The notes under the pieces were generated by a model, which was not told the DNA's origin, ran no database searches, and saw nothing but the letters and a program-made list of their open reading frames with translations. From the IMG/VR virus record IMGVR_UViG_2721755645_000001: a stretch of 17,017 nt of DNA; one strand, given 5' to 3'. The translations under genes were made by a program, and so were the position numbers. Origin of the DNA: a virus (Monodnaviria > Loebvirae > Hofneiviricota > Faserviricetes > Tubulavirales > Inoviridae). Shown here in pieces: positions 1 through 17,017 of this stretch (positions are counted from its first letter, which is position 1; each line of letters begins with the position of its first letter).

Positions 1-2
1 TT

Positions 3-34
3 GGTGCGCATAATGTCAACGCGTTATGTTGAAA
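3..34. other. dif-like XerC/XerD recombination site (att) at the left prophage boundary
   Basis: GGTGCGCATAA (3..13) is identical to the XerC-binding arm of E. coli dif; a 10-bp central region TGTCAACGCG follows, then TTATGTTGAAA, which resembles the XerD arm TTATGTTAAAT with 2 mismatches. Confidence 0.6.
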
Positions 35-68
35 AGGCCGCTGCGAAAATCGAATCCCGCAGCGGCCT
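35..68 (-). terminator. Rho-independent terminator candidate downstream of the 309-aa cargo gene
   Basis: GC-rich inverted repeat GGCCGCTGCG (36..45) / CGCAGCGGCC (58..67) with a 12-nt loop; on the minus strand it is followed by TTTTC; the gene's stop is at 101. Confidence 0.5.
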
Positions 69-100
69 CTTTAGCATAACGTCATTGTGCGAACCAATAG

Positions 101-1030
101 CTACTTTTTCGTATAACTCTCTTCGCATTTAGCCAAAAACAGCAGATTAGTAGCGGTTAAATGAAGGGTATAACTCGCTAAATACTCAGGAACTTTTGTT
201 ATTTCTGCCCCTTGTCCATGTCCACCTTCTTTATTTCGAATGGTTGGAATACCACTCTCAAGTAGAATTCTTATTGAAGAAAATTGATTCTGGAGGTATT
301 CAGGTACTAAATTATTTGCCAAACAACTGTTAATTAGTTTTTTAGCTGTGTCAGTATCATTAAATTGCCAAGAATGTTTTTTATGTATGGCTTTCATTAG
401 ACTTTCAAAAGATTTGAGGCAATCATTTAAACATTCTTTATATCGCTGATGTCTATAATGCTCATGGGCGGATAAAAACTCATCGTTTGCTCCGTTATAA
501 CTCTTGTTCTTACCAAGAATCTGAAGCGTAGGCTTTACAACATCAGAATGAATGAATTGTGAGTCAACTTTAACCAACTCTCCTGACTCAAATTGATATC
601 CAAGACCTGCTTCTTTAAACCTGATATTAAGTTCTTCAATAGCATCATCAGGACTTTGCTTTACTAACCCTCTGAATTTCCACTCATTTGATCTTATATA
701 CCCGTCTATCAGTTTGAAACATATCTCAATGATATCCAAGCATTTTTCATGATCTCTCTCAGCTAGGAAATAGTCAAAAATTGCCCCGAAATTCGATTCA
801 GGATACTGTTTGAGAGAGAATACACCATATTCCTTACACAGCGTTTTATGAACGAGTCTGTAAAGCTTACTTGCTTCCGTTTCATAGTCACTATCTTCAC
901 CGATAGTATCTCTTACAATATGAACAACCTGAACACGAAATGCATTTGGTATATTCGTGTATTGGTAAACATCAGCTACTTCACCTCTTAATTTTTTTTG
1001 TCTTTTTGAAAATAATTCGAATATAGCCAA
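101..1030 (-). CDS. Hypothetical 309-aa cargo protein; possible HEPN-type C-terminal domain (R265-x5-H271); function unknown
   Basis: Long ORF with GAGGA Shine-Dalgarno 7 nt upstream of the ATG; very AT-rich (about 30-32% GC in hand-sampled stretches) compared with neighbours; C-terminal motif IRNKEGGHG; terminator hairpin downstream. Confidence 0.75.
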   Translation of the reverse strand: MAIFELFSKRQKKLRGEVADVYQYTNIPNAFRVQVVHIVRDTIGEDSDYETEASKLYRLVHKTLCKEYGVFSLKQYPESNFGAIFDYFLAERDHEKCLDIIEICFKLIDGYIRSNEWKFRGLVKQSPDDAIEELNIRFKEAGLGYQFESGELVKVDSQFIHSDVVKPTLQILGKNKSYNGANDEFLSAHEHYRHQRYKECLNDCLKSFESLMKAIHKKHSWQFNDTDTAKKLINSCLANNLVPEYLQNQFSSIRILLESGIPTIRNKEGGHGQGAEITKVPEYLASYTLHLTATNLLFLAKCEESYTKK

Positions 1031-1116
1031 TTTATAATCCTCAAAGATATGCCATTAATATGTCTGAGTTGATGAAAATCACACCGCTTTTACAGTCGTT
1101 TTCCACGGTGGAGTTA

Positions 1117-1536
1117 TCAGTAATATGAGTTTCTTCTGTGCCACCAATAAAGAAGTCCGTATCCAATGATAAGAATTCCGAAAAACATCAACGACATTCC
1201 CCAGCCAGTTCCGTACCACGAAACCATATCATCGAAAACCAACCCACCCATTTCACGTACTCCGGCAGCTTCCTTAAGAATTGGTTTGAATACCGGAATC
1301 AGAAGGGCGATCGCCAGTGGAGCACCCCAGCGAACAAGACCTGTTTCCATTTTGATCCCGAAAAAGATCCCCGCTCCGACAGCAAGCAACCAGACTACCA
1401 GGCCAGGCGCAGTTTCCAGTGCTGTTTGCCATTCAACATCGAAAGTTTTCATTAGCCAGGCAACAACTGCCAGACAGAAAGCAAATACGCCGACGACAAC
1501 CAGTTCAACGCCGCTTGTTTCGTTATTTCTACTCAT
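1117..1536 (-). CDS. Small integral membrane protein, about 4 predicted TM helices, unknown function
   Basis: 139 aa with four hydrophobic stretches (LVVVGVFAFCLAVVAWLM, LVVWLLAVGAGIFFGI, PLAIALLIPVF, LMFFGILIIGYGLLYWW); about 52% GC in sampled stretches; AAGGA upstream of the ATG. Confidence 0.65.
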   Translation of the reverse strand: MSRNNETSGVELVVVGVFAFCLAVVAWLMKTFDVEWQTALETAPGLVVWLLAVGAGIFFGIKMETGLVRWGAPLAIALLIPVFKPILKEAAGVREMGGLVFDDMVSWYGTGWGMSLMFFGILIIGYGLLYWWHRRNSYY

Positions 1537-1578
1537 CCTTTTGATCCTTTTTCACTGTTCAAAATTCGCACAATAAAG

Positions 1579-1607
1579 AACGTGCAGTGTTGGTAATACT
1601 GCACGTT
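1579..1607 (-). terminator. Perfect 10-bp inverted repeat (AACGTGCAGT-N9-ACTGCACGTT); candidate terminator or attenuator after the repressor gene, or an operator
   Basis: Hairpin lies 29 nt downstream of the repressor stop (1636) on the minus strand and is followed on that strand by a T-rich tract (CTTTATTGTG). Confidence 0.4.
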
Positions 1608-1635
1608 TGTCTCATTCCTGAGACTGTTAATCCTT

Positions 1636-2082
1636 TTACTCTTCTCCAGACACCGCTTTTTTCATAAACATTTTAGTACTGTAAGTGTATGAACTTAAGG
1701 CAGAAACTTGCCTTGCGAGTGCCAGAATATCTTGTTTTTCCAGTGTCCTGATGTTCCACACGATGAAATTATGTGCGTTAGTGGTTTCTTCATCAGTATA
1801 TCCATCCGCAGAAGTGATTAGCTTCCGCTCGGTAGCTTCTTCTTTAACATCAAGAGCATAGCCATAAGCTAAGGTGTTTAAGTCTGCACCCGTAATTTTA
1901 GCTATCTGAATGATGTCACTGAATTTAGGTTCAGTTTTGCCGGACGCTATCCTGACCAGCGTACTCACGCTAATGCCAGTCTTCTCGGCCAGTTCTTCAT
2001 AAGTCGAGTGTTCCAGAATTACCTTTTTGATACGTTCTGCTCTCTGTTTGTCCGCCATAACTTCATGCTCATTGTTGCCCAT
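1636..2082 (-). CDS. XRE-family helix-turn-helix transcriptional regulator (phage repressor-like, analogous in position to RstR)
   Basis: 148 aa; N-terminal HTH-like segment YEELAEKTGISVSTLVRIASGKTEPKFSDIIQIAKITGADLNTL; divergently transcribed from the replication gene; GGAG 8 nt upstream of the ATG. Confidence 0.7.
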   Translation of the reverse strand: MGNNEHEVMADKQRAERIKKVILEHSTYEELAEKTGISVSTLVRIASGKTEPKFSDIIQIAKITGADLNTLAYGYALDVKEEATERKLITSADGYTDEETTNAHNFIVWNIRTLEKQDILALARQVSALSSYTYSTKMFMKKAVSGEE

Positions 2083-2253
2083 CTACTTGGCTCCATCTTA
2101 ACAGTGGTTTTTCAATAGTTAGATTTGATGCTCATTTCTGACAATTTAAACATTGCAAATGTATTGACTGTCAGATCTGAGCATATTACATTGTGACCAT
2201 TCAATCTGCTCACAAATGACTATTGACACATATTTTGATGGGTGTGACTACTT
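2083..2253. promoter_or_regulatory. Divergent promoter/operator region between the repressor and replication genes
   Basis: Rightward sigma70-like candidate: -35 TTGACT (2164..2169), 17-bp spacer, -10 TACATT (2187..2192). Overlapping palindromes TGACTGTCA (2165..2173) and TCAGATCTGA (2171..2180) and further TGAC repeats are candidate repressor sites. Confidence 0.45.
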
Positions 2254-3306
2254 ATGATCGACTGGTTTACCGGAATCCTGCCTTGCACACACCGACCGTT
2301 ACCGGCTGGTAGTGTCGTCAGCGTCGATGCTGACGGTGCAGTGGAGTGGGAAACAGTAAAACGGTTGACCGTTCGCGGTTCGCATGAGTCCACAATGAAA
2401 GTAAGGTCTGTTGGATCTGATGGTGAAGGTCGGGCAACACATCTCTACATTGACGGTAATCCATCAAAGTTTTTGCAAGGTCACTCTGTTATCGGTTCCG
2501 ACGATTTGCAAGGGTTGGTGTTAACAGCTTACGCCAGAATATTGGCATTACTGCATATTCCTCATGATCTACCATCCTATCGGCAGGTCATGAAAGGGCA
2601 ATTTAAGATCTCGCGCATCGATATCAATTACATGTATTCATTGTCAACATTAGAAAATGTCCGCGCATGGTTATATGCCGCAGAATTTAAAGCTAAAACT
2701 CGCCACGGTCGCGCCTGTAGTAAAGGTGGCACTGTTTACTTAGGGAAAAACTCCCGTCGTTGGAGCCTGAAATTTTATTCAAAATATGATGAGCATACAT
2801 CTGGCAAAAAAGGGCACCAGATGGCAGACGAATTCGTTAAAGCTGGTTTACTGGACTGGTCAAAAGATAAATTACGCATTGAATTAACATTAAGAACAAC
2901 TGAATTAATTGATTTGAATCTTACGCTTGGTAATAGCTGGAATATTGAGACGCCCAATAAATTATTCTCTGACTATGTAGGGAGAATAGAAATGAATCAA
3001 AATACTATATTAACTGATGAAAAAATAATTAATCTCCCAAGAAAAATACAGTCTACATATTTATTGTGGAAGCAGGGCGCGAACATGAAAGAGATGTTAC
3101 CGAAACCTACATTCTACCGACACCGTAAAGAATTACTTTCTTTCGGAATAGATATTAACTTTTATTGTGAGTCACCGGATTCTAATAACGTTGTTCCGTT
3201 GGTTCGTACTCTTGAAGCCAAACCAGCCAAAATTCCATCATGGGTTTATGAGAAAGGTTTAATTTTCGATTATAACCGTATTTCACATGCCAGTAACTGG
3301 CATTAA
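2254..3306 (+). CDS. Putative rolling-circle replication initiation protein (gene II / RstA-like)
   Basis: 350-aa ORF, first gene of the plus-strand module and divergent from the repressor, as in Ff and CTX-type phages; assignment by synteny and size only, no catalytic motif verified. Confidence 0.55.
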   Translation: MIDWFTGILPCTHRPLPAGSVVSVDADGAVEWETVKRLTVRGSHESTMKVRSVGSDGEGRATHLYIDGNPSKFLQGHSVIGSDDLQGLVLTAYARILALLHIPHDLPSYRQVMKGQFKISRIDINYMYSLSTLENVRAWLYAAEFKAKTRHGRACSKGGTVYLGKNSRRWSLKFYSKYDEHTSGKKGHQMADEFVKAGLLDWSKDKLRIELTLRTTELIDLNLTLGNSWNIETPNKLFSDYVGRIEMNQNTILTDEKIINLPRKIQSTYLLWKQGANMKEMLPKPTFYRHRKELLSFGIDINFYCESPDSNNVVPLVRTLEAKPAKIPSWVYEKGLIFDYNRISHASNWH

Positions 3307-3317
3307 AGGAGAGTGAT

Positions 3318-3635
3318 ATGTCTAATTATGGTCTTTTTGTAAAAGGTAAAATGCTTGGTGCTCGCCAGCGTAATAAGGTCAATGGTCAGGGATACTATAA
3401 TGAAATTGGTGTTGGCTTAGAGATTCCTGATGGTTTTGGCGGCACTAAGCAAGACCAGATTATTATTCGTGTATCTCAGGCTCTTGTTAATGCCGGTGTA
3501 ATGAATCAGGCAAATAATTTTATCGGTAAGTTAGTCCAGATACCTGTATATGTTCGCGTCTGGTCAATGGAGGGGAGGGAAGGAGTAACTTATAACATTT
3601 CATCAGATGGCGGCATTACTGAAATAAAAGGCTGA
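3318..3635 (+). CDS. Putative ssDNA-binding protein (gene V / RstB-like)
   Basis: 105-aa ORF directly after the replication gene; strong AAGGAGAG Shine-Dalgarno; position matches gV in Ff synteny. Confidence 0.45.
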   Translation: MSNYGLFVKGKMLGARQRNKVNGQGYYNEIGVGLEIPDGFGGTKQDQIIIRVSQALVNAGVMNQANNFIGKLVQIPVYVRVWSMEGREGVTYNISSDGGITEIKG

Positions 3636-3637
3636 TT

Positions 3638-3889
3638 ATGGATACATCAGGTTTCGATATTCAGTTTGATAATCATATTCCTGAAAATGGTTACCGTATT
3701 GAAGGTTATTTATGTAATGCGAACAATGCAAAAGAATGTCAGGCAATAATGGTACGTTCTGAACCATTTCATCAAATTGATTATTCTGCAATGGGAAATT
3801 ACTGGACATTAGGTTTTGGCTCTGTCCTGCTGCTCTGGCTTTTTTCTGTAGGTGTGGGACAGGTAATAAAGATGGTTCGTACTGCTTGA
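3638..3889 (+). CDS. Small protein with a C-terminal hydrophobic segment; possible minor coat or morphogenesis protein
   Basis: 83 aa, start 2 nt after the upstream stop; C-terminal segment WTLGFGSVLLLWLFSVGVGQVI; position corresponds to gVII/gIX in Ff order. Confidence 0.4.
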   Translation: MDTSGFDIQFDNHIPENGYRIEGYLCNANNAKECQAIMVRSEPFHQIDYSAMGNYWTLGFGSVLLLWLFSVGVGQVIKMVRTA

Positions 3890-3923
3890 ATGCGAACCTT
3901 TAAAATGTAATGGAGATAGAGTT

Positions 3924-4157
3924 ATGTTTAAAAAAATCGTTAGTTTTCTGGCTGTACCTGCATTAATGGCTGTTTCTGGCGCGACTTTCGCTGCAGAAGG
4001 AGCGGCATCAAGTGGTGTTGATTTATCGCCGCTGACGAACAGCATTGATTTCAGTACAGTTCTGGTTGCGATTATGGCCGTTGCTGCTTCACTGGTAACA
4101 CTTTATGCCGGTGTCGCTGGCGTTCGCTGGGTATTGCGTACCGTTAAATCCGCATAA
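3924..4157 (+). CDS. Major coat protein (gene VIII-like)
   Basis: 77 aa; signal peptide MFKKIVSFLAVPALMAVSGATFA with AXA-type cleavage, acidic mature N-terminus, hydrophobic core and basic C-terminus (RWVLRTVKSA); GGAGA Shine-Dalgarno; strong terminator follows. Confidence 0.75.
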   Translation: MFKKIVSFLAVPALMAVSGATFAAEGAASSGVDLSPLTNSIDFSTVLVAIMAVAASLVTLYAGVAGVRWVLRTVKSA

Positions 4158-4170
4158 ATTCATTATTCAT

Positions 4171-4195
4171 GGGCGATGCAATATCGCCCGTTTTA
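4171..4195 (+). terminator. Rho-independent terminator after the coat gene
   Basis: Stem GGGCGAT (4171..4177) / ATCGCCC (4183..4189) with a 5-nt loop, followed by GTTTTA; matches the position of the gVIII terminator in Ff phages. Confidence 0.7.
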
Positions 4196-4221
4196 CTTGA
4201 GGTTATTATGGAGATTGAATT

Positions 4222-5934
4222 ATGGAAATTGGGTTCCCTTTTATGGGGGATCGTCTCAGCTTATGTCGTTATTCTTGGGCTAAGAGGCTGACGGTTTATT
4301 CCTTTATTTTTTCCTTTCTCTGGGTTTCCTTTCCCCGATATTCATATTCATTTGTACCAGCAATTGCAGCAGTGGCTGCGCGGGCTGTTATTCCTAAAGT
4401 CGTTGGCCGGGTGCTTGTTCGTCGCTTTGCTGCCAATGATGCGATTTATACGGCATCACAGCTTACAGCAACCCGTGTTTTTGTTGGCCGCGCTGCGGCT
4501 AATGCTGCCGAATACTTGCCTGCTGCCTCATCATACAAAATGAGCGGTGTTGCAACGTGGGCGGGTATTGCTGCTGCTGTATCATCTTTTGTTCCGTCTT
4601 CTTTGAGTTCATCTGACGGCTCGGTAATGGTAATGACTAACGGTAAAAAGATTTCCGATAATTTATATGAAGTAACGTACAGTGGTCAAAGTGGTGAAAG
4701 TAAGACGATAACCGTTAATTTTGAACCACAGGAATTAAGTCCGGTAATCCTTCATGTTAGTCGTAATAATGTGGATGCGGGTTCTCCAGTTGTAGGTGTT
4801 GAAACAGGATATTCCACGCCAGATAATGCACTTTATTATTATCAGGATTCGAAAGAGCTAATTTATTACTATGGTGATAATCCAACTGAAATTGCCAGAA
4901 ATTATCTTAATGACTATAACTCGCGTACTTATACTGAAACACTAACGAATTTTGAACGCACTGTGACGAATAAAGTTGTCAACAGTAATGGAGATGTCTC
5001 CTTTACTGAACAGAATTATAAGTTTACTTATCCTTCCTCATTTTATGAAATTCCTGAGATTACACACTTGTATAGCAACCCGGCCGCATCTTCATTTCCC
5101 GCAGGTATTCCCATGTATGAAAATGTAGCAGGGCTTCCCATGTATTACAGCGTTGCTTATTTAACAGCAGGAAAGCAATATCAGTATCACAACACGCCTT
5201 GTAAAACGACTAATCAGTCAAATGGTGGATATTCGACGATTTGCGCCGTTCCTGAAAAAGAGGATTACACCACAAAAGATATTGATGAAAAGAGTGAGCT
5301 TACTATCTGGACCAATACCAAATATAAAGCCATGACGGAAGTACTGGAGGCCGGAAATATTGAGTCCATGATTGATTATCTGGAGTATCTTGATAGTGTT
5401 AGTGTATCGCCAGCACTTCTTGCCGACATGATTAACGAGCTGTGGTCTGAAGCTGCCGTTAATGCCGATTATAACGGCTTACCGTTTAAAGAGGTTTCAC
5501 CGGCTGAAGTAACTTCTGCGATGTCGGAACTTAGGCTATCTCCAACGTTATTAGATATGCTTTCACCTGTATCTGACAGTGCAGGGGCTGACGTCAATAT
5601 TGATATTACCATTAATAACAACTCAGGATCTGACACTGGAAATAATGGCAATATAGATTTGGGAGAAGATCCCGGTGTAAAAGAGCCTGAGCTTGAAGAA
5701 ACGCCAACGGCAAGAGATATTTTAACGCCAATTATTAACTTGTTGCCTTTTACAAACGAATTTAACATCGGCTCTCGTTCAGCATCCTGCCCCGTTGTTG
5801 AATTCAGCGTGTTTAATCACCAGTACAGAATTGACTCCCATTGTCCGTTAATTGAGCAGAACAGAAGCGCCGTAGAAACCATATTTCTGATTATATGGGG
5901 ATTTGTTGCGCTCCGTATTATTCTTAGTGCCTAA
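4222..5934 (+). CDS. Minor coat / adsorption protein (gene III-like)
   Basis: 570 aa; signal-like hydrophobic N-terminal segment, Gly/Ser/Asn-rich linker (NNNSGSDTGNNGN) and C-terminal membrane anchor (IFLIIWGFVALRIILSA); the true start may be the internal ATG at 4243. Confidence 0.65.
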   Translation: MEIGFPFMGDRLSLCRYSWAKRLTVYSFIFSFLWVSFPRYSYSFVPAIAAVAARAVIPKVVGRVLVRRFAANDAIYTASQLTATRVFVGRAAANAAEYLPAASSYKMSGVATWAGIAAAVSSFVPSSLSSSDGSVMVMTNGKKISDNLYEVTYSGQSGESKTITVNFEPQELSPVILHVSRNNVDAGSPVVGVETGYSTPDNALYYYQDSKELIYYYGDNPTEIARNYLNDYNSRTYTETLTNFERTVTNKVVNSNGDVSFTEQNYKFTYPSSFYEIPEITHLYSNPAASSFPAGIPMYENVAGLPMYYSVAYLTAGKQYQYHNTPCKTTNQSNGGYSTICAVPEKEDYTTKDIDEKSELTIWTNTKYKAMTEVLEAGNIESMIDYLEYLDSVSVSPALLADMINELWSEAAVNADYNGLPFKEVSPAEVTSAMSELRLSPTLLDMLSPVSDSAGADVNIDITINNNSGSDTGNNGNIDLGEDPGVKEPELEETPTARDILTPIINLLPFTNEFNIGSRSASCPVVEFSVFNHQYRIDSHCPLIEQNRSAVETIFLIIWGFVALRIILSA

Positions 5935-5946
5935 AGGAGTGCAACT

Positions 5947-6147
5947 ATGTTTGGGATTCTGATTAGTGCATTAAATACTTTGTTAGGTTTTGTATTCCGG
6001 TCATTGATTATTAAATTCGTCGTATTCTTTGCGCTGTATTTTGTAGTCCAGGGCTTCGTTGATATACGGGGAAAAAATAATGAAAAAGATTTTACTCGCA
6101 TTAACGCTACTATTTTCTTCATGTGCTTTCGCAGGGTCAGAGCTTGA
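5947..6147 (+). pseudogene. Truncated gene VI-like ORF; 3' end removed by the 1183-bp deletion in copy 1
   Basis: First 38 codons identical to the 95-aa ORF at 13681..13968, then the frame diverges after the deletion junction (6062|6063) and runs into the gIV region. Confidence 0.7.
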
Positions 6148-7324
6148 ATTAAATAAAGTCAAGCTACCGGAGGCTATTTCTCTTATTTACAGTGAGGTGC
6201 TTAAAGTCCCGTATATGCTAGATCCACAGCTTGTTAATGATGAACGAATGATTACATTCAGGTTAACATCTGATATTGATGAACGGGAATTTGTAACCCG
6301 TTATCTTGGCAATATGAACATTCGAATATGGACGAAAAAGGGTGTTGATTTTATCGCGCCCTATACGCCGAAAGAGCCGGTTAAGCCACGTTATACATGG
6401 ACTTATACGCCTCAGTACCGTTCTGTTGCCTACCTGTCTGATATTCTTGGCGGCTACGTTTCAGGCTCCTTCAATAACAGTGGAGCCGTGATTTCTGACG
6501 ATTCGCTAAAAGGTTCATCAGGGGCAAGCAACTACATCAATCGAACCGGTGATATTCTGGTTTATTATGGTACGAAAGAGGATATCGCCATCCTGAAAAC
6601 ACTGGTCACTTCGCTGGATACGATGAGTGATGAAGTGGTTGTTTCTGGTTATGTTTTTGAGGTTCAGACCTCGCAGTCTGACGGCTCCGGCATTCTTTTA
6701 GCGGCTAAAATTCTGTCTGATAAATTCAATATTTCAGTTGGTGCTGCCGGACTGGATAATTTTATCAATATTCGAACCGGCTCCATTGATGCCATTTTCA
6801 ATCTGCTGAAAACCGACAGTCGTTTTACTGTTGTCAGTGCGCCACGACTGCGGGTAAAAAATAATGCCTCAGCGTCTTTTTCAGTCGGCTCTGATGTGCC
6901 AGTACTGGGCAGTGTTACGGTGAATAACAATACGACAACGCAATCCGTTGAATATCGTTCCAGCGGTGTTTTGTTTAACGTGACGCCATCAATCAAAAGT
7001 CGGACAATGGATCTCAAGATTCAGCAGCAGCTTTCCAACTTTGTGACCACTGAAACCGGCGTCAATAACTCGCCAACCCTTATCAAGCGTGATGTAACAA
7101 CCGAAGTCAGCCTTGCAGATGGTGATATTATTTTACTTGGTGGCCTTGCTGAACAGAAAGACAGTAAGGCCAGTTCCGGCTGGAGCTTCTTCGGTTCCCG
7201 TACCAGTGAAAGCAACAAGACTGATATTATGGTGATGCTTCAGGTCAGAAAGGTTGACCGGAGCAGGGCGACGCCCCGCAGCGCCGCGAGGAGCGGTGAA
7301 CTGTTCCGGGACAACCTGAACTGA
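6080..7324 (+). CDS. Secretin (gene IV-like outer-membrane export channel), copy 1
   Basis: 414 aa from the ATG at 6080; signal peptide MKKILLALTLLFSSCAFA; C-terminal secretin-like motif DGDIILLGGL. The ORF-track start at 6059 is an in-frame ATG created by the deletion junction. Confidence 0.8.
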   Translation: MKKILLALTLLFSSCAFAGSELELNKVKLPEAISLIYSEVLKVPYMLDPQLVNDERMITFRLTSDIDEREFVTRYLGNMNIRIWTKKGVDFIAPYTPKEPVKPRYTWTYTPQYRSVAYLSDILGGYVSGSFNNSGAVISDDSLKGSSGASNYINRTGDILVYYGTKEDIAILKTLVTSLDTMSDEVVVSGYVFEVQTSQSDGSGILLAAKILSDKFNISVGAAGLDNFINIRTGSIDAIFNLLKTDSRFTVVSAPRLRVKNNASASFSVGSDVPVLGSVTVNNNTTTQSVEYRSSGVLFNVTPSIKSRTMDLKIQQQLSNFVTTETGVNNSPTLIKRDVTTEVSLADGDIILLGGLAEQKDSKASSGWSFFGSRTSESNKTDIMVMLQVRKVDRSRATPRSAARSGELFRDNLN

Positions 7325-7736
7325 TTGTATGGATTTTTATTATGGCGTTAACTTTTATGGGGTATGAACAGTACGACATCTTTTTGTTGCTGTCCGGGGT
7401 TGGCCAAGCCGTACAGTTTCCATTTTCAGCGTTATGGCTGATTCGGCGCGGCAGCATTCATCGGGCCTTATCATGGAAAAATTCATGACACATCAGGAGC
7501 ATGGTGATTGGTGATGGCACTGAAGAAGTGGTGTTTGATTCTCGTGTATCAGGTACAGATTTACCAACTAACTGGATGAACAGGCCTGATTGGTGAGGTC
7601 AGGCCGTTCACTTACTGCTGACAGACATTTGATTCTGATTCGTTTGGAGAAACGGATGATTTTGAATCACTGTCGATAGTAGCCAGTTGACGGCCAGTGT
7701 CAACGATTCCCGCCAGATTCTGCCATCCTTACCATT

Positions 7737-7768
7737 GGTGCGCATAATGTCAACGCGTTATGTTGAAA
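7737..7768. other. dif-like XerC/XerD site at the junction between the tandem prophage copies
   Basis: Same 32-bp sequence as 3..34, lying exactly at the copy 1 / copy 2 boundary. Confidence 0.6.
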
Positions 7769-7802
7769 AGGCCGCTGCGAAAATCGAATCCCGCAGCGGC
7801 CT
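7769..7802 (-). terminator. Rho-independent terminator candidate (copy 2 equivalent)
   Basis: Same hairpin as 35..68. Confidence 0.5.
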
Positions 7803-7834
7803 CTTTAGCATAACGTCATTGTGCGAACCAATAG

Positions 7835-8764
7835 CTACTTTTTCGTATAACTCTCTTCGCATTTAGCCAAAAACAGCAGATTAGTAGCGGTTAAATGAAG
7901 GGTATAACTCGCTAAATACTCAGGAACTTTTGTTATTTCTGCCCCTTGTCCATGTCCACCTTCTTTATTTCGAATGGTTGGAATACCACTCTCAAGTAGA
8001 ATTCTTATTGAAGAAAATTGATTCTGGAGGTATTCAGGTACTAAATTATTTGCCAAACAACTGTTAATTAGTTTTTTAGCTGTGTCAGTATCATTAAATT
8101 GCCAAGAATGTTTTTTATGTATGGCTTTCATTAGACTTTCAAAAGATTTGAGGCAATCATTTAAACATTCTTTATATCGCTGATGTCTATAATGCTCATG
8201 GGCGGATAAAAACTCATCGTTTGCTCCGTTATAACTCTTGTTCTTACCAAGAATCTGAAGCGTAGGCTTTACAACATCAGAATGAATGAATTGTGAGTCA
8301 ACTTTAACCAACTCTCCTGACTCAAATTGATATCCAAGACCTGCTTCTTTAAACCTGATATTAAGTTCTTCAATAGCATCATCAGGACTTTGCTTTACTA
8401 ACCCTCTGAATTTCCACTCATTTGATCTTATATACCCGTCTATCAGTTTGAAACATATCTCAATGATATCCAAGCATTTTTCATGATCTCTCTCAGCTAG
8501 GAAATAGTCAAAAATTGCCCCGAAATTCGATTCAGGATACTGTTTGAGAGAGAATACACCATATTCCTTACACAGCGTTTTATGAACGAGTCTGTAAAGC
8601 TTACTTGCTTCCGTTTCATAGTCACTATCTTCACCGATAGTATCTCTTACAATATGAACAACCTGAACACGAAATGCATTTGGTATATTCGTGTATTGGT
8701 AAACATCAGCTACTTCACCTCTTAATTTTTTTTGTCTTTTTGAAAATAATTCGAATATAGCCAA
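7835..8764 (-). CDS. Hypothetical 309-aa cargo protein (copy 2), possible HEPN-type C-terminus
   Basis: Identical translation to 101..1030. Confidence 0.75.
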   Translation of the reverse strand: MAIFELFSKRQKKLRGEVADVYQYTNIPNAFRVQVVHIVRDTIGEDSDYETEASKLYRLVHKTLCKEYGVFSLKQYPESNFGAIFDYFLAERDHEKCLDIIEICFKLIDGYIRSNEWKFRGLVKQSPDDAIEELNIRFKEAGLGYQFESGELVKVDSQFIHSDVVKPTLQILGKNKSYNGANDEFLSAHEHYRHQRYKECLNDCLKSFESLMKAIHKKHSWQFNDTDTAKKLINSCLANNLVPEYLQNQFSSIRILLESGIPTIRNKEGGHGQGAEITKVPEYLASYTLHLTATNLLFLAKCEESYTKK

Positions 8765-8850
8765 TTTATAATCCTCAAAGATATGCCATTAATATGTCTG
8801 AGTTGATGAAAATCACACCGCTTTTACAGTCGTTTTCCACGGTGGAGTTA

Positions 8851-9270
8851 TCAGTAATATGAGTTTCTTCTGTGCCACCAATAAAGAAGTCCGTATCCAA
8901 TGATAAGAATTCCGAAAAACATCAACGACATTCCCCAGCCAGTTCCGTACCACGAAACCATATCATCGAAAACCAACCCACCCATTTCACGTACTCCGGC
9001 AGCTTCCTTAAGAATTGGTTTGAATACCGGAATCAGAAGGGCGATCGCCAGTGGAGCACCCCAGCGAACAAGACCTGTTTCCATTTTGATCCCGAAAAAG
9101 ATCCCCGCTCCGACAGCAAGCAACCAGACTACCAGGCCAGGCGCAGTTTCCAGTGCTGTTTGCCATTCAACATCGAAAGTTTTCATTAGCCAGGCAACAA
9201 CTGCCAGACAGAAAGCAAATACGCCGACGACAACCAGTTCAACGCCGCTTGTTTCGTTATTTCTACTCAT
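8851..9270 (-). CDS. Small integral membrane protein (copy 2)
   Basis: Identical translation to 1117..1536. Confidence 0.65.
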   Translation of the reverse strand: MSRNNETSGVELVVVGVFAFCLAVVAWLMKTFDVEWQTALETAPGLVVWLLAVGAGIFFGIKMETGLVRWGAPLAIALLIPVFKPILKEAAGVREMGGLVFDDMVSWYGTGWGMSLMFFGILIIGYGLLYWWHRRNSYY

Positions 9271-9312
9271 CCTTTTGATCCTTTTTCACTGTTCAAAATT
9301 CGCACAATAAAG

Positions 9313-9341
9313 AACGTGCAGTGTTGGTAATACTGCACGTT
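9313..9341 (-). terminator. Inverted repeat, candidate terminator or operator (copy 2)
   Basis: Same sequence as 1579..1607. Confidence 0.4.
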
Positions 9342-9369
9342 TGTCTCATTCCTGAGACTGTTAATCCTT

Positions 9370-9816
9370 TTACTCTTCTCCAGACACCGCTTTTTTCATA
9401 AACATTTTAGTACTGTAAGTGTATGAACTTAAGGCAGAAACTTGCCTTGCGAGTGCCAGAATATCTTGTTTTTCCAGTGTCCTGATGTTCCACACGATGA
9501 AATTATGTGCGTTAGTGGTTTCTTCATCAGTATATCCATCCGCAGAAGTGATTAGCTTCCGCTCGGTAGCTTCTTCTTTAACATCAAGAGCATAGCCATA
9601 AGCTAAGGTGTTTAAGTCTGCACCCGTAATTTTAGCTATCTGAATGATGTCACTGAATTTAGGTTCAGTTTTGCCGGACGCTATCCTGACCAGCGTACTC
9701 ACGCTAATGCCAGTCTTCTCGGCCAGTTCTTCATAAGTCGAGTGTTCCAGAATTACCTTTTTGATACGTTCTGCTCTCTGTTTGTCCGCCATAACTTCAT
9801 GCTCATTGTTGCCCAT
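9370..9816 (-). CDS. XRE-family HTH transcriptional regulator (copy 2)
   Basis: Identical translation to 1636..2082. Confidence 0.7.
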   Translation of the reverse strand: MGNNEHEVMADKQRAERIKKVILEHSTYEELAEKTGISVSTLVRIASGKTEPKFSDIIQIAKITGADLNTLAYGYALDVKEEATERKLITSADGYTDEETTNAHNFIVWNIRTLEKQDILALARQVSALSSYTYSTKMFMKKAVSGEE

Positions 9817-9987
9817 CTACTTGGCTCCATCTTAACAGTGGTTTTTCAATAGTTAGATTTGATGCTCATTTCTGACAATTTAAACATTGCAAATGTATTG
9901 ACTGTCAGATCTGAGCATATTACATTGTGACCATTCAATCTGCTCACAAATGACTATTGACACATATTTTGATGGGTGTGACTACTT
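9817..9987. promoter_or_regulatory. Divergent promoter/operator region (copy 2)
   Basis: Same sequence as 2083..2253. Confidence 0.45.
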
Positions 9988-11040
9988 ATGATCGACTGGT
10001 TTACCGGAATCCTGCCTTGCACACACCGACCGTTACCGGCTGGTAGTGTCGTCAGCGTCGATGCTGACGGTGCAGTGGAGTGGGAAACAGTAAAACGGTT
10101 GACCGTTCGCGGTTCGCATGAGTCCACAATGAAAGTAAGGTCTGTTGGATCTGATGGTGAAGGTCGGGCAACACATCTCTACATTGACGGTAATCCATCA
10201 AAGTTTTTGCAAGGTCACTCTGTTATCGGTTCCGACGATTTGCAAGGGTTGGTGTTAACAGCTTACGCCAGAATATTGGCATTACTGCATATTCCTCATG
10301 ATCTACCATCCTATCGGCAGGTCATGAAAGGGCAATTTAAGATCTCGCGCATCGATATCAATTACATGTATTCATTGTCAACATTAGAAAATGTCCGCGC
10401 ATGGTTATATGCCGCAGAATTTAAAGCTAAAACTCGCCACGGTCGCGCCTGTAGTAAAGGTGGCACTGTTTACTTAGGGAAAAACTCCCGTCGTTGGAGC
10501 CTGAAATTTTATTCAAAATATGATGAGCATACATCTGGCAAAAAAGGGCACCAGATGGCAGACGAATTCGTTAAAGCTGGTTTACTGGACTGGTCAAAAG
10601 ATAAATTACGCATTGAATTAACATTAAGAACAACTGAATTAATTGATTTGAATCTTACGCTTGGTAATAGCTGGAATATTGAGACGCCCAATAAATTATT
10701 CTCTGACTATGTAGGGAGAATAGAAATGAATCAAAATACTATATTAACTGATGAAAAAATAATTAATCTCCCAAGAAAAATACAGTCTACATATTTATTG
10801 TGGAAGCAGGGCGCGAACATGAAAGAGATGTTACCGAAACCTACATTCTACCGACACCGTAAAGAATTACTTTCTTTCGGAATAGATATTAACTTTTATT
10901 GTGAGTCACCGGATTCTAATAACGTTGTTCCGTTGGTTCGTACTCTTGAAGCCAAACCAGCCAAAATTCCATCATGGGTTTATGAGAAAGGTTTAATTTT
11001 CGATTATAACCGTATTTCACATGCCAGTAACTGGCATTAA
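9988..11040 (+). CDS. Putative replication initiation protein (copy 2)
   Basis: Identical translation to 2254..3306. Confidence 0.55.
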   Translation: MIDWFTGILPCTHRPLPAGSVVSVDADGAVEWETVKRLTVRGSHESTMKVRSVGSDGEGRATHLYIDGNPSKFLQGHSVIGSDDLQGLVLTAYARILALLHIPHDLPSYRQVMKGQFKISRIDINYMYSLSTLENVRAWLYAAEFKAKTRHGRACSKGGTVYLGKNSRRWSLKFYSKYDEHTSGKKGHQMADEFVKAGLLDWSKDKLRIELTLRTTELIDLNLTLGNSWNIETPNKLFSDYVGRIEMNQNTILTDEKIINLPRKIQSTYLLWKQGANMKEMLPKPTFYRHRKELLSFGIDINFYCESPDSNNVVPLVRTLEAKPAKIPSWVYEKGLIFDYNRISHASNWH

Positions 11041-11051
11041 AGGAGAGTGAT

Positions 11052-11369
11052 ATGTCTAATTATGGTCTTTTTGTAAAAGGTAAAATGCTTGGTGCTCGCC
11101 AGCGTAATAAGGTCAATGGTCAGGGATACTATAATGAAATTGGTGTTGGCTTAGAGATTCCTGATGGTTTTGGCGGCACTAAGCAAGACCAGATTATTAT
11201 TCGTGTATCTCAGGCTCTTGTTAATGCCGGTGTAATGAATCAGGCAAATAATTTTATCGGTAAGTTAGTCCAGATACCTGTATATGTTCGCGTCTGGTCA
11301 ATGGAGGGGAGGGAAGGAGTAACTTATAACATTTCATCAGATGGCGGCATTACTGAAATAAAAGGCTGA
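11052..11369 (+). CDS. Putative ssDNA-binding protein (copy 2)
   Basis: Identical translation to 3318..3635. Confidence 0.45.
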   Translation: MSNYGLFVKGKMLGARQRNKVNGQGYYNEIGVGLEIPDGFGGTKQDQIIIRVSQALVNAGVMNQANNFIGKLVQIPVYVRVWSMEGREGVTYNISSDGGITEIKG

Positions 11370-11371
11370 TT

Positions 11372-11623
11372 ATGGATACATCAGGTTTCGATATTCAGTT
11401 TGATAATCATATTCCTGAAAATGGTTACCGTATTGAAGGTTATTTATGTAATGCGAACAATGCAAAAGAATGTCAGGCAATAATGGTACGTTCTGAACCA
11501 TTTCATCAAATTGATTATTCTGCAATGGGAAATTACTGGACATTAGGTTTTGGCTCTGTCCTGCTGCTCTGGCTTTTTTCTGTAGGTGTGGGACAGGTAA
11601 TAAAGATGGTTCGTACTGCTTGA
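11372..11623 (+). CDS. Small hydrophobic protein, possible minor coat protein (copy 2)
   Basis: Identical translation to 3638..3889. Confidence 0.4.
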   Translation: MDTSGFDIQFDNHIPENGYRIEGYLCNANNAKECQAIMVRSEPFHQIDYSAMGNYWTLGFGSVLLLWLFSVGVGQVIKMVRTA

Positions 11624-11657
11624 ATGCGAACCTTTAAAATGTAATGGAGATAGAGTT

Positions 11658-11891
11658 ATGTTTAAAAAAATCGTTAGTTTTCTGGCTGTACCTGCATTAA
11701 TGGCTGTTTCTGGCGCGACTTTCGCTGCAGAAGGAGCGGCATCAAGTGGTGTTGATTTATCGCCGCTGACGAACAGCATTGATTTCAGTACAGTTCTGGT
11801 TGCGATTATGGCCGTTGCTGCTTCACTGGTAACACTTTATGCCGGTGTCGCTGGCGTTCGCTGGGTATTGCGTACCGTTAAATCCGCATAA
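11658..11891 (+). CDS. Major coat protein (copy 2)
   Basis: Identical translation to 3924..4157. Confidence 0.75.
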   Translation: MFKKIVSFLAVPALMAVSGATFAAEGAASSGVDLSPLTNSIDFSTVLVAIMAVAASLVTLYAGVAGVRWVLRTVKSA

Positions 11892-11904
11892 ATTCATTAT
11901 TCAT

Positions 11905-11929
11905 GGGCGATGCAATATCGCCCGTTTTA
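11905..11929 (+). terminator. Rho-independent terminator after the coat gene (copy 2)
   Basis: Same sequence as 4171..4195. Confidence 0.7.
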
Positions 11930-11955
11930 CTTGAGGTTATTATGGAGATTGAATT

Positions 11956-13668
11956 ATGGAAATTGGGTTCCCTTTTATGGGGGATCGTCTCAGCTTATGT
12001 CGTTATTCTTGGGCTAAGAGGCTGACGGTTTATTCCTTTATTTTTTCCTTTCTCTGGGTTTCCTTTCCCCGATATTCATATTCATTTGTACCAGCAATTG
12101 CAGCAGTGGCTGCGCGGGCTGTTATTCCTAAAGTCGTTGGCCGGGTGCTTGTTCGTCGCTTTGCTGCCAATGATGCGATTTATACGGCATCACAGCTTAC
12201 AGCAACCCGTGTTTTTGTTGGCCGCGCTGCGGCTAATGCTGCCGAATACTTGCCTGCTGCCTCATCATACAAAATGAGCGGTGTTGCAACGTGGGCGGGT
12301 ATTGCTGCTGCTGTATCATCTTTTGTTCCGTCTTCTTTGAGTTCATCTGACGGCTCGGTAATGGTAATGACTAACGGTAAAAAGATTTCCGATAATTTAT
12401 ATGAAGTAACGTACAGTGGTCAAAGTGGTGAAAGTAAGACGATAACCGTTAATTTTGAACCACAGGAATTAAGTCCGGTAATCCTTCATGTTAGTCGTAA
12501 TAATGTGGATGCGGGTTCTCCAGTTGTAGGTGTTGAAACAGGATATTCCACGCCAGATAATGCACTTTATTATTATCAGGATTCGAAAGAGCTAATTTAT
12601 TACTATGGTGATAATCCAACTGAAATTGCCAGAAATTATCTTAATGACTATAACTCGCGTACTTATACTGAAACACTAACGAATTTTGAACGCACTGTGA
12701 CGAATAAAGTTGTCAACAGTAATGGAGATGTCTCCTTTACTGAACAGAATTATAAGTTTACTTATCCTTCCTCATTTTATGAAATTCCTGAGATTACACA
12801 CTTGTATAGCAACCCGGCCGCATCTTCATTTCCCGCAGGTATTCCCATGTATGAAAATGTAGCAGGGCTTCCCATGTATTACAGCGTTGCTTATTTAACA
12901 GCAGGAAAGCAATATCAGTATCACAACACGCCTTGTAAAACGACTAATCAGTCAAATGGTGGATATTCGACGATTTGCGCCGTTCCTGAAAAAGAGGATT
13001 ACACCACAAAAGATATTGATGAAAAGAGTGAGCTTACTATCTGGACCAATACCAAATATAAAGCCATGACGGAAGTACTGGAGGCCGGAAATATTGAGTC
13101 CATGATTGATTATCTGGAGTATCTTGATAGTGTTAGTGTATCGCCAGCACTTCTTGCCGACATGATTAACGAGCTGTGGTCTGAAGCTGCCGTTAATGCC
13201 GATTATAACGGCTTACCGTTTAAAGAGGTTTCACCGGCTGAAGTAACTTCTGCGATGTCGGAACTTAGGCTATCTCCAACGTTATTAGATATGCTTTCAC
13301 CTGTATCTGACAGTGCAGGGGCTGACGTCAATATTGATATTACCATTAATAACAACTCAGGATCTGACACTGGAAATAATGGCAATATAGATTTGGGAGA
13401 AGATCCCGGTGTAAAAGAGCCTGAGCTTGAAGAAACGCCAACGGCAAGAGATATTTTAACGCCAATTATTAACTTGTTGCCTTTTACAAACGAATTTAAC
13501 ATCGGCTCTCGTTCAGCATCCTGCCCCGTTGTTGAATTCAGCGTGTTTAATCACCAGTACAGAATTGACTCCCATTGTCCGTTAATTGAGCAGAACAGAA
13601 GCGCCGTAGAAACCATATTTCTGATTATATGGGGATTTGTTGCGCTCCGTATTATTCTTAGTGCCTAA
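11956..13668 (+). CDS. Minor coat / adsorption protein (copy 2)
   Basis: Identical translation to 4222..5934. Confidence 0.65.
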   Translation: MEIGFPFMGDRLSLCRYSWAKRLTVYSFIFSFLWVSFPRYSYSFVPAIAAVAARAVIPKVVGRVLVRRFAANDAIYTASQLTATRVFVGRAAANAAEYLPAASSYKMSGVATWAGIAAAVSSFVPSSLSSSDGSVMVMTNGKKISDNLYEVTYSGQSGESKTITVNFEPQELSPVILHVSRNNVDAGSPVVGVETGYSTPDNALYYYQDSKELIYYYGDNPTEIARNYLNDYNSRTYTETLTNFERTVTNKVVNSNGDVSFTEQNYKFTYPSSFYEIPEITHLYSNPAASSFPAGIPMYENVAGLPMYYSVAYLTAGKQYQYHNTPCKTTNQSNGGYSTICAVPEKEDYTTKDIDEKSELTIWTNTKYKAMTEVLEAGNIESMIDYLEYLDSVSVSPALLADMINELWSEAAVNADYNGLPFKEVSPAEVTSAMSELRLSPTLLDMLSPVSDSAGADVNIDITINNNSGSDTGNNGNIDLGEDPGVKEPELEETPTARDILTPIINLLPFTNEFNIGSRSASCPVVEFSVFNHQYRIDSHCPLIEQNRSAVETIFLIIWGFVALRIILSA

Positions 13669-13680
13669 AGGAGTGCAACT

Positions 13681-13968
13681 ATGTTTGGGATTCTGATTAG
13701 TGCATTAAATACTTTGTTAGGTTTTGTATTCCGGTCATTGATTATTAAATTCGTCGTATTCTTTGCGCTGTATTTTGTAGTCCAGGGCTTCGTTGAAATC
13801 CTTGTTGAGTTACTGCCAGATTCAAGCAATCTCTCATCGCTGTTTGCCAATTTATCAGACGGATTCTGGTACTTCATTAACCTGAGTAAATTACCACAGG
13901 GGATTAGTATGATTATCTCCGCAATGGCTACTCGTTTTATTATTCGACGTATTCCTGTTATAGGGTGA
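13681..13968 (+). CDS. Minor coat protein (gene VI-like)
   Basis: 95-aa hydrophobic protein with AAGGAG Shine-Dalgarno, lying between the gIII-like and gI-like genes as in Ff phages. Confidence 0.6.
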   Translation: MFGILISALNTLLGFVFRSLIIKFVVFFALYFVVQGFVEILVELLPDSSNLSSLFANLSDGFWYFINLSKLPQGISMIISAMATRFIIRRIPVIG

Positions 13969-13971
13969 GTT

Positions 13972-14997
13972 ATGGCTATTTCTGCATATATTGGCATACC
14001 CGGCTCAGGAAAAAGTTATGAAGCCGTTTGCAATGTCATTATTCCGGCATTTACCAGCGGCCGGAGAGTTGTGACGAACATTTATGGTTTACAAAAAGAT
14101 AAAATCACCGAACGTTATCCTGATGCAACGGGAGAAATTATTGTTGTGGATAATGATGATGTGCTTAAAGCAGATTTCTTTCCTTTTAAAGGTGGGGAAG
14201 GGAGCTTTTGCCAGTTTGGTGATTTAATTGTTATTGATGAAGCATGGCGAATCTTCGGTAGCGATAAGGATATGACGGCTGAGAAGAAATCATTTATTGC
14301 TGAACATCGTCATTTTACGCACCCTGAAACGGGTATTAGCTGTGATTTGGTTATTGTAAATCAGTCACTTTCTAATATTGCTCGCTTTCTGAAAGACAAA
14401 ATAGAAACAACTTACCGGATGCGCAAGCTGAAAGCGTTGGGCCTGAATAATCATTACTGCATTGACGTATATTCAGGCCACAAAATCTATAAAAGCAACC
14501 TCGTCACCAGTTATCGCAATAAATATAACCCTGATATTTTTGAACTTTACAAAAGTTATGAAGGAAATAACGGTAATGAAAAGCAGACAGATAAACGCCA
14601 GAGCATCTGGAATTCTGGCAAAGTCAGGTTCTTTCTTGTGCTTTTTCCATTGATGTTTATCGGGTCAGGCTGGCTGATTTACTCATTTTTCAGCACGTTT
14701 GGCCGAAGCGATCCCTCGCCAGATTTGACTACAACAGATGTACGTGATGCGGCCATGTTTCGTTCTTCCGCTGCTACTCCAGCACCAGATACTCCCTCAG
14801 AACCAGCTGAACCGCCACTTTCAACCGAGTGGCGTATATCAGGGAGAATGACCAGTGAAGGCAGGGCGTTTGTGATTCTTGTTAATGGTGCCGGTGTTTT
14901 GCGTGCCGTTCCTGCATCCAGTTTTAATTACAAAGGGATGTTGATGAGCGGAATTATTGATGGTGAGCGTGTGACGCTTTATACGGGGAAAAAATAA
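13972..14997 (+). CDS. Assembly ATPase (gene I / Zot-like)
   Basis: 341 aa; Walker A GIPGSGKSY at the N-terminus, Walker B-like LIVIDEAW, C-terminal TM segment (FFLVLFPLMFIGSGWLIYSFF); stop overlaps the gIV start (TAATG). Present only in copy 2. Confidence 0.8.
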   Translation: MAISAYIGIPGSGKSYEAVCNVIIPAFTSGRRVVTNIYGLQKDKITERYPDATGEIIVVDNDDVLKADFFPFKGGEGSFCQFGDLIVIDEAWRIFGSDKDMTAEKKSFIAEHRHFTHPETGISCDLVIVNQSLSNIARFLKDKIETTYRMRKLKALGLNNHYCIDVYSGHKIYKSNLVTSYRNKYNPDIFELYKSYEGNNGNEKQTDKRQSIWNSGKVRFFLVLFPLMFIGSGWLIYSFFSTFGRSDPSPDLTTTDVRDAAMFRSSAATPAPDTPSEPAEPPLSTEWRISGRMTSEGRAFVILVNGAGVLRAVPASSFNYKGMLMSGIIDGERVTLYTGKK

Positions 14998-16241: not shown

Positions 16242-16329
16242 TTGTATGGATTTTTATTATGGCGTTAACTTTTATGGGGTATGAACAGTACGACATCTTC
16301 TAGGTATTCAGTTACTTAGAGGATTTATT

Positions 16330-16578
16330 ATGTCTGTAAAAAATAAGGCGCGTGACCGACTTCCCGGTGGCCGCCTTAAGTCTTATCGTCGTGTAGGTTC
16401 ACATTTTGCCAGTTGTGCCAGATGGTTTGATAAATCGCCGTCCTGGTATCGCAATATGATGATGACCAGGCCTGAGCGCCGTGAAGTCAGAAGGCTTCTC
16501 AATCAGGTAATGCGTGGTCATGATGCTGACGGCATTGCTTTTCCGGTCAGTCATCGTCCGTTTGTTTATTGGTGGTGA
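16330..16578 (+). CDS. Hypothetical small basic protein (82 aa, Arg-rich), copy 2 only
   Basis: ORF with GAGGA Shine-Dalgarno 6 nt upstream; lies inside a 373-bp segment (about 16300..16672) that is absent from copy 1; no recognisable motif. Confidence 0.5.
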   Translation: MSVKNKARDRLPGGRLKSYRRVGSHFASCARWFDKSPSWYRNMMMTRPERREVRRLLNQVMRGHDADGIAFPVSHRPFVYWW

Positions 16579-17017
16579 ATTTCGTACGCACGAAATTTCA
16601 CGCATAAACACCAGACAAAAAATCGTTAACTGTCTGTTTTGAAAGATAACGCCGGTCAGTGACAAAACTTGTTTTGTTGCTGTCCGGGGTTGGCCAAGCC
16701 GTACAGTTTCCATTTTCAGCGTTATGGCTGATTCGGCGCGGCAGCATTCATCGGGCCTTATCATGGAAAAATTCATGACACATCAGGAGCATGGTGATGG
16801 CACTGAAGAAGTGGTGTTTGATTCTCGTGTATCAGGTACAGATTTACCAACTAACTGGATGAACAGGCCTGATTGGTGAGGTCAGGCCGTTCACTTACTG
16901 CTGACAGACATTTGATTCTGATTCGTTTGGAGAAACGGATGATTTTGAATCACTGTCGATAGTAGCCAGTTGACGGCCAGTGTCAACGATTCCCGCCAGA
17001 TTCTGCCATCCTTACCA

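Follow-up and report, generated by a model that had tools for sequence, protein, structure and literature searches.

Tandem Inovirus Prophages at dif in Escherichia coli NGF-1, One Recorded Copy of Which Lacks Gene I and Part of Gene VI

The 17,017-nucleotide stretch of DNA analyzed here (the window) is a tandem pair of CUS-1/Ypf-phi-class inoviruses at the chromosome terminus dif site of Escherichia coli NGF-1, and one of the two recorded copies lacks 1183 bp that are present in the other. The best explanation, which we hold to be probable, is the decay of one member of a redundant prophage array, with one deleted copy of two. We read the deletion as a new, private case of ordinary prophage decay whose placement within the array rests on the assembly model.

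Prophage array, gene content, and relatives

The window corresponds to the minus strand of the NGF-1 chromosome (NZ_CP016007.1), with window base 1 at record base 16883, and the record's own origin lies inside the window, at 16883/16884, within copy 2. The window holds two head-to-tail prophage copies (1 to 7734 and 7735 to 17017) and nothing else, and each copy opens with TTGGTGCGCATAATGTCAACGCGTTATGTTGAAA. The order at the locus is hipA, att, copy 1, att, copy 2, dif, with hipA directly to the left of the window and a perfect dif, GGTGCGCATAATGTATATTATGTTAAAT, directly after base 17017 in the record. Apart from three changes in copy 1, the two copies are 100% identical. The main features are as follows.

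1 to 7734, plus strand: prophage copy 1, 7734 nt, with the deletion; recorded on the hipA side
7735 to 17017, plus strand: copy 2 of the prophage (9283 nt), complete, dif-proximal
1 to 99, plus strand: left attachment site of the array, with a dif-like site at 3 to 34 (GGTGCGCATAA-TGTCAACGCG-TTATGTTGAAA) and an inverted dif-like site at 69 to 95 on the minus strand
2254 to 3306, plus strand: gene II of copy 1, replication initiator, intact and identical to 9988 to 11040
13681 to 13968, plus strand: gene VI of copy 2, minor coat protein of 95 aa (DUF2523; PHROG "minor head protein")
13972 to 14997, plus strand: gene I of copy 2, Zot-like assembly ATPase of 341 aa
14997 to 16241, plus strand: gene IV of copy 2, secretin of 414 aa (PHROG 1012, "protein IV of M13," 2e-137)
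6080 to 7324, plus strand: gene IV of copy 1, secretin, intact, 414 aa, the same protein as in copy 2

Pfam and PHROG matches give the complete copy an inovirus module in the order gII-gV-small ORF-gVIII-gIII-gVI-gI(Zot)-gIV(secretin), together with a divergent HTH regulator; gene VIII is coat-B-like, and the gene III-like ORF is large. Gene II (9988 to 11040) matches Phage_CRI (1e-73) and G2P_X_C. The gene I product has the features of a pI/Zot assembly ATPase, namely, a Zot domain (PF05707, 2e-26; PHROG 197, 9e-94), an N-terminal Walker A motif (GIPGSGKS, residues 8 to 15), and one hydrophobic, membrane-spanning segment with a hydropathy peak near residues 218 to 240. The exact pI protein of copy 2 is widespread and is 100% identical to one encoded in Yersinia pestis.

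Some minor features of the gene content were also noted. A 15-nt in-frame indel (14775 to 14789) lies between TACTCC repeats in the Pro/Thr/Ala-rich part of gene I; the 341-aa allele found in NGF-1 copy 2 is the widespread one, and a 336-aa allele is present in both copies of the sister strain NC101 and in other genomes with the same cargo. This cargo gene, on the attL side (7835 to 8764, minus strand, and also 101 to 1030), encodes a 309-aa protein of the STM4504/CBY_0614 family and is matched at 73 to 85% identity by hundreds of enterobacterial plasmids, most of which are conjugative. In the 171-nt intergenic region between the HTH gene and gene II, a palindrome (9862 to 9918; arms of 27 nt) overlaps two promoter-like sites and is probably an operator and promoter region. 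In promoter and terminator scans around gene IV, promoter-like sites were fewer than in shuffled sequence.

An intact dif is rebuilt at the 3' end of the array (hipA flank, att, and so on to copy 2, followed by GGTGCGCATAATGTATATTATGTTAAAT). At the other end, the two inverted dif-like sites are predicted to constitute a CTX-type forked-hairpin attP in the (+) single-stranded DNA (ssDNA); the modeled fold has an energy of -32.4 kcal/mol (z = -8.3) and an unpaired central region. Because two inverted dif-like sites make up the attP, reversible integration of the VGJ type was rejected. The published classification places CUS-1 and Ypf-phi in the CTX class, whose members integrate irreversibly and generate phage DNA by rolling-circle replication over tandem copies (PMC4246890).

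The phage of NC101 has been named NC-Ino (PMC12803456) and is the same phage as that in the window. Ypf-phi of Y. pestis, CUS-1 of E. coli O18:K1:H7, and NC-Ino share the gene order seen here, as well as integration at dif with dif rebuilt at the 3' end and the presence of tandem copies, and Ypf-phi forms arrays of two to four copies (PMC4266046). The array of Y. pestis NCTC5923 is 99.6% identical in nucleotide sequence over 9290 to 16790 (the 7.5-kb core) and 100% identical over 16790 to 17017. Compared with these phages, one NGF-1 copy lacks gene I, part of gene VI, and an 82-aa ORF and has a 7-nt duplication, whereas Ypf-phi and the CUS-1-like variants carry unrelated attL-side cargo in place of the STM4504/CBY_0614 gene.

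Of 5,426 complete E. coli genomes, ~100 (about 104) carry the phage, the median being two copies per genome. A megablast search of copy 2 against the INPHARED phage collection gave zero matches; the family is deposited only as prophages and "plasmids," and a 9565-bp circular form exists as a "plasmid" record. The same phage is also found at two places in the 248-kb Klebsiella pneumoniae plasmid NZ_CP132684.1 (99.4% identical over 89% of the length), which is a case of integration away from the chromosomal dif.

Anatomy and age of the deletion

BLAST comparison of 1 to 7734 with 7735 to 17017 aligned 1 to 6062 with 7735 to 13796 and 6063 to 7382 with 14980 to 16299, both gapless and at 100% identity, a match pattern that cannot be due to chance; copy 1 is thus without exactly 13797 to 14979 (1183 bp). 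The lesions of copy 1 are as follows.

6062/6063: deletion junction, joining copy-2 positions 13796 and 14980
13797 to 14979, plus strand: segment present in copy 2 and absent from copy 1, comprising the 3' 172 nt of gene VI and gene I minus its last 18 nt
5947 to 6147, plus strand: truncated gene VI of copy 1, a 66-aa ORF of 38 native and 28 out-of-frame residues
7382/7383: second deletion junction of copy 1, lacking 373 bp (copy-2 positions 16300 to 16672), with one ambiguous T
7502 to 7515, plus strand: 7-nt tandem duplication in copy 1 (TGGTGAT twice; one unit in copy 2, at 16792 to 16798)

Read directly, copy 1 runs ...GGGCTTCGTTGA/TATACGGGG... at the junction. The corresponding edges in copy 2 are ...GTTGA/AATCC... 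on the left and ...ACGCTT/TATAC... on the right, with no base common to either side of the junction, in agreement with the earlier statement that microhomology is absent. The original prediction of a clean 1183-bp deletion removing gene I and the 3' end of gene VI is confirmed by BLAST and by direct reading, and so are its finer points: gene VI has become a 66-aa frame-shifted ORF that keeps 38 of the 95 native residues, gene I is reduced to its last 18 nt, and gene IV is intact with its Shine-Dalgarno sequence (the GGGG Shine-Dalgarno and the TAATG overlap are kept, and the protein is identical). The truncated gene VI ORF overlaps gene IV by 68 nt, and pVI loses its C-terminal 57 residues; in RefSeq, the gene VI remnant is flagged as a pseudogene.

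The 373-bp deletion and the 7-nt duplication were absent from that prediction. The former takes out an 82-aa ORF (16330 to 16578) that has no Pfam or PHROG match and that, from its place after gene IV, may correspond to YPO2280a of Ypf-phi. The left end of this deletion is in a predicted hairpin (16295 to 16324), and the right end is at the apex of another (16648 to 16691) with 21-nt arms. The duplication lies 128 nt beyond the 373-bp deletion. The CUS-1-like and Ypf-phi variants have ~92 extra nt at 16790, completing a 65-aa ORF (WP_001298440.1); since the duplication and this insertion share a site, 16790 is an indel hotspot. We rejected the duplication as a remnant of the 92-nt segment, as it is a simple tandem repeat.

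The age of the deletion can be judged from NC101, an independently sequenced strain in which two intact 9268-nt copies, identical to each other, occupy the same site and the flanks are ~100% identical to those of NGF-1. The four copies of the two strains differ by indels only, with zero base substitutions, and the complete NGF-1 phage is one 15-nt indel apart from the NC101 phage. Given the intact NC101 copies and the lack of substitutions among the four copies, the deletion is a recent, derived change. Among the 5,426 complete E. coli genomes, NGF-1 alone gave a contiguous match to a 600-nt probe spanning the junction; searches for the exact 37 nt of the junction in IMG/VR, JGI metagenome contigs, and GTDB genome contigs gave no match; and none of the four ORFs spanning either junction is on record as an exact sequence in a 15-billion-protein collection. 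The deletion is therefore private to the NGF-1 record. The possibility that copy 1 is an ancestral short form was rejected, as the deletion breaks a conserved ORF and the missing segment is present in NC101, Y. pestis, and ~100 other E. coli genomes.

Outside the window, NGF-1 is also without 656 bp of chromosome ~350 nt beyond dif (NGF-1 19487; NC101 9855 to 10510). This loss is inside an esterase pseudogene and has a nearly blunt junction with 1-nt microhomology. The genome sizes of NGF-1 and NC101 differ by 3,982 bp, over half of which is due to this loss and the array differences combined.

Independent lesions in the gene I region are also present in the dif arrays of other E. coli strains: (i) in SCU-101, both copies are without 14288 to 15420 (1133 bp), giving an in-frame gI-gIV fusion, and the presence of the same fusion in both copies means that a defective genome was duplicated or integrated twice; (ii) in TUM13881, gene I contains IS1; and (iii) in VR50, the upstream, hipA-proximal copy is truncated from gene III onward, with 13197 joined to 9327 of the next copy, a position inside the loop of the candidate-origin hairpin described below. 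The NGF-1 junction is common to none of these three strains, and the endpoints differ. In a further genome, CEA106S, 28% of the 13797-to-14979 segment is retained.

Assembly record and placement of the deletion

The NGF-1 genome was assembled with SPAdes from Illumina 2x250 reads only, giving 51 contigs that were joined by hand with the help of short stretches of identity at their ends, the genomes of other E. coli strains, and some PCR; 13 contigs were removed as contamination (PMC6284091). With two near-identical 9-kb copies and short reads only, the copies are not resolvable from the NGF-1 data. From the 1183-bp junction to the nearest other difference between the copies there are 1320 nt, more than an ordinary insert spans, and to the left of the junction the copies are identical. 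The junction itself can be supported by reads, but its hipA-proximal placement cannot, and a chromosomal "copy 1" in which the deletion is linked to the other two changes was modeled by the finishers rather than observed. The graph branch at 13796/14980 most likely reflects real reads, which makes it probable that the deleted molecule exists. Only about 130 to 240 nt separate the 373-bp junction, the 7-nt duplication, and the inter-copy att junction from one another, so that reads could phase these three.

Several properties of the record speak against simple decay of the chromosomal copy 1. The record is based on short reads only, with manual and reference-guided joining, and its origin falls inside copy 2. 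The junction is in no other genome or contig collection searched, and no junction-spanning ORF is on record. In addition, three structural changes with zero substitutions in one copy, next to the 656-bp loss, are an unusual concentration. Some of these properties are shared by the alternative in which the junction is real but misplaced or mis-phased, so that the deletion would lie in the dif-proximal copy, in an episomal "miniphage" population of replicative-form DNA, or in only a subset of the cells and would have been threaded into a two-copy model. We regard this alternative as rather unlikely. The hand joining of short-read contigs, the 1320-nt distance, and a record that starts inside the array are all in line with it. 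This prophage is also where the assemblies of FDAARGOS_1257, YZB902, FDAARGOS_1261, and DA33137 start or stop; Ypf-phi occurs in extrachromosomal form, and its arrays are dynamic; and a 9565-bp circular form is on record as a "plasmid." However, NC101 shows that the lineage carries two chromosomal copies, a two-path assembly graph most simply means two chromosomal alleles, and the other two changes could be phased with the att junction by reads. We prefer the decay of one chromosomal copy. More generally, tandem inovirus arrays in "complete" genomes based on short reads should not be read copy by copy.

Functional consequences and candidate replication origin

Ff phages cannot assemble without pI, and in these phages the terminating end of the particle is capped by pVI. 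In Ypf-phi, disruption of YPO2279 abolished particle production, and YPO2279 has been grouped with the next gene, YPO2280, as a secretion module (PMC4266046); judging from the gene order, YPO2279 would be the gene I homologue. The earlier claim that copy 1 could not assemble particles alone is well founded by analogy, as the Zot/pI ATPase is lost, its Ypf-phi homologue is 100% identical, and the YPO2279 disruption abolishes particles. The claim that copy 1 would depend on copy 2 in trans is reasonable as far as the supply of pI and pVI by the intact copy is concerned, but it is incomplete given the rolling-circle export of CTX-class phages.

Under the decay reading, one copy would have lost the 1183 bp by an illegitimate, microhomology-free deletion in the NGF-1 lineage, and with it the Zot-like assembly ATPase pI and the C-terminal end of pVI (57 residues). 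The deleted copy would keep genes II, V, VIII, III, and IV, the attP, and the candidate origin, and with the replication, coat, and secretin genes retained, it should be replicable and probably packageable. Its assembly would need pI and pVI from the intact neighbor. Such a deletion matters little beyond the NGF-1 strain.

Tandem arrays of filamentous prophages with a defective member are familiar, and the textbook example is CTX-phi/RS1. The Vibrio cholerae elements resemble the NGF-1 array in their forked-hairpin single-stranded attP, in irreversible integration at dif by the Xer recombinases, and in a tandem arrangement in which a morphogenesis-deficient element lies beside the complete phage on which it relies, as the deleted copy presumably does in NGF-1. 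Phage DNA is produced from the CTX-phi array by rolling-circle replication (PMC4246890). However, RS1 is without the whole core module and encodes the antirepressor RstC, whereas in the NGF-1 copy only gene I and part of gene VI are missing and nothing has been added, and the replication protein of the NGF-1 phage is of the Ff type (Phage_CRI) and not of the RstA type as in CTX-phi/RS1. Copy 1 keeps gVIII, gIII, and gIV and has no unique sequence beyond the 7-nt duplication; with most morphogenesis genes kept and no added gene, its identity as an RS1-type satellite was rejected. The miniphages and defective interfering particles of Ff phages (f1/M13) are likewise deletion derivatives that need helper functions in trans, but they are episomal and keep little beyond the intergenic origin/packaging region. 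The NGF-1 copy is recorded as chromosomal and keeps 7734 of 9283 nt (83%), gene II included, on which ground identity as an Ff-type miniphage was also rejected; the endpoints of the 1183-bp deletion are >4 kb from the candidate origin.

1579 to 1624, plus strand: candidate (+)-strand origin of copy 1, identical to 9313 to 9358
9313 to 9358, plus strand: candidate (+)-strand origin of copy 2, based on conservation and covariation across relatives

The candidate origin consists of a hairpin, AACGTGCAGT-GTTGGTAAT-ACTGCACGTT, followed by an inverted repeat, GTCTCA-TTCC-TGAGAC. The hairpin (9313 to 9341; 1579 to 1607 in copy 1) has the stem AACGTGCAGT and the loop GTTGGTAAT, and in 15 relatives whose gene II proteins are 85 to 99% identical, the stem is invariant and one loop base varies, while the flanks diverge. 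Both arms of the adjacent inverted repeat change together, from GTCTCA..TGAGAC to GTACCA..TGGTAC, and this change follows the gene II class and not the repressor allele. The element is conserved in 31 of 39 IMG/VR relatives. It adjoins the repressor gene, with a 139-aa ORF on one side and the HTH gene on the other, in a position like that of ig-1 in CTX-phi, and the hairpin is at the left edge of the core shared with Ypf-phi. Its layout is like that of the Ff nick hairpin followed by the initiator-binding repeat. A search with the f1/IKe nick-site consensus found nothing significant, and the best local alignment with the f1 origin core was inside gene II on the wrong strand, with 11 of 100 shuffles giving matches as good. 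From conservation and layout, the hairpin is fairly probably the (+) origin. This conserved candidate origin beside the repressor gene, together with the repeated gene I lesions, may be more useful than the deletion itself.

The candidate origins bear on a further alternative, in which the deleted copy would be the only exportable genome of the array. In the CTX scheme, export covers the stretch between the upstream and the downstream origins, so that with the recorded copy order and the candidate origin both correct, the array would release the 7734-nt deleted genome alone. Rolling-circle replication from the copy-1 origin to the copy-2 origin would free a 7734-nt circle, helper dependent and RS1-like, to be packaged with pI and pVI from an immobile copy 2. 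The CTX-class assignment of CUS-1 and Ypf-phi, with irreversible integration and with tandem copies needed for rolling-circle phage production (PMC4246890), is compatible with such export, as are the CTX-type attP found in the window, the invariance of the candidate origin in the 15 relatives with an inverted repeat that covaries with the gene II class, and the location of all three copy-1 lesions between the two candidate origins. On the other hand, the origin assignment comes from conservation and layout, with similarity to the f1 origin that is not significant, the copy order is that of a short-read assembly model, and the 373-bp deletion interrupts predicted hairpins with a possible role in packaging or as the minus-strand origin. 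Export of this kind is unlikely in our estimation, and the full proposition that NGF-1 exports only the 7734-nt genome, as a newly formed RS1-like satellite with the intact copy as its captive helper, is a little more doubtful again. Were it true, recurrent gene I lesions in upstream copies elsewhere could reflect the same route to phage domestication; were the copy order reversed, the full genome would be exported and the deleted copy would be inert. NGF-1 is a widely used engineered gut chassis, and whether it sheds infectious phage, defective phage, or none is a practical question whose answer depends on which copy carries the deletion.

That the deletion is purely a finishing artefact, carried by no molecule and made by abutting contigs or omitting the segment from one copy, is very unlikely: manual, reference-guided finishing with 13 contigs discarded, a junction without microhomology such as simple abutment would give, its uniqueness to the NGF-1 record, and another clean 656-bp "deletion" adjoining the array could all be so explained, but the same 1183 bp are present in copy 2 and hence were assembled, in a de Bruijn graph contigs end only where a real branch occurs, identical copies would collapse and be duplicated whole, and three separate differences in one copy are hard to obtain by omission. 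The decay of one of two chromosomal copies remains our preferred reading.

As a separate observation on this prophage family, at least 5 of the about 104 complete phage-carrying genomes (NZ_CP016007, NZ_CP069480, NZ_CM135960, NZ_CP069441, and NZ_CP029579) have records that start or end within ~15 kb of the array, where chance predicts <1; the prophage array is a frequent assembly break point.
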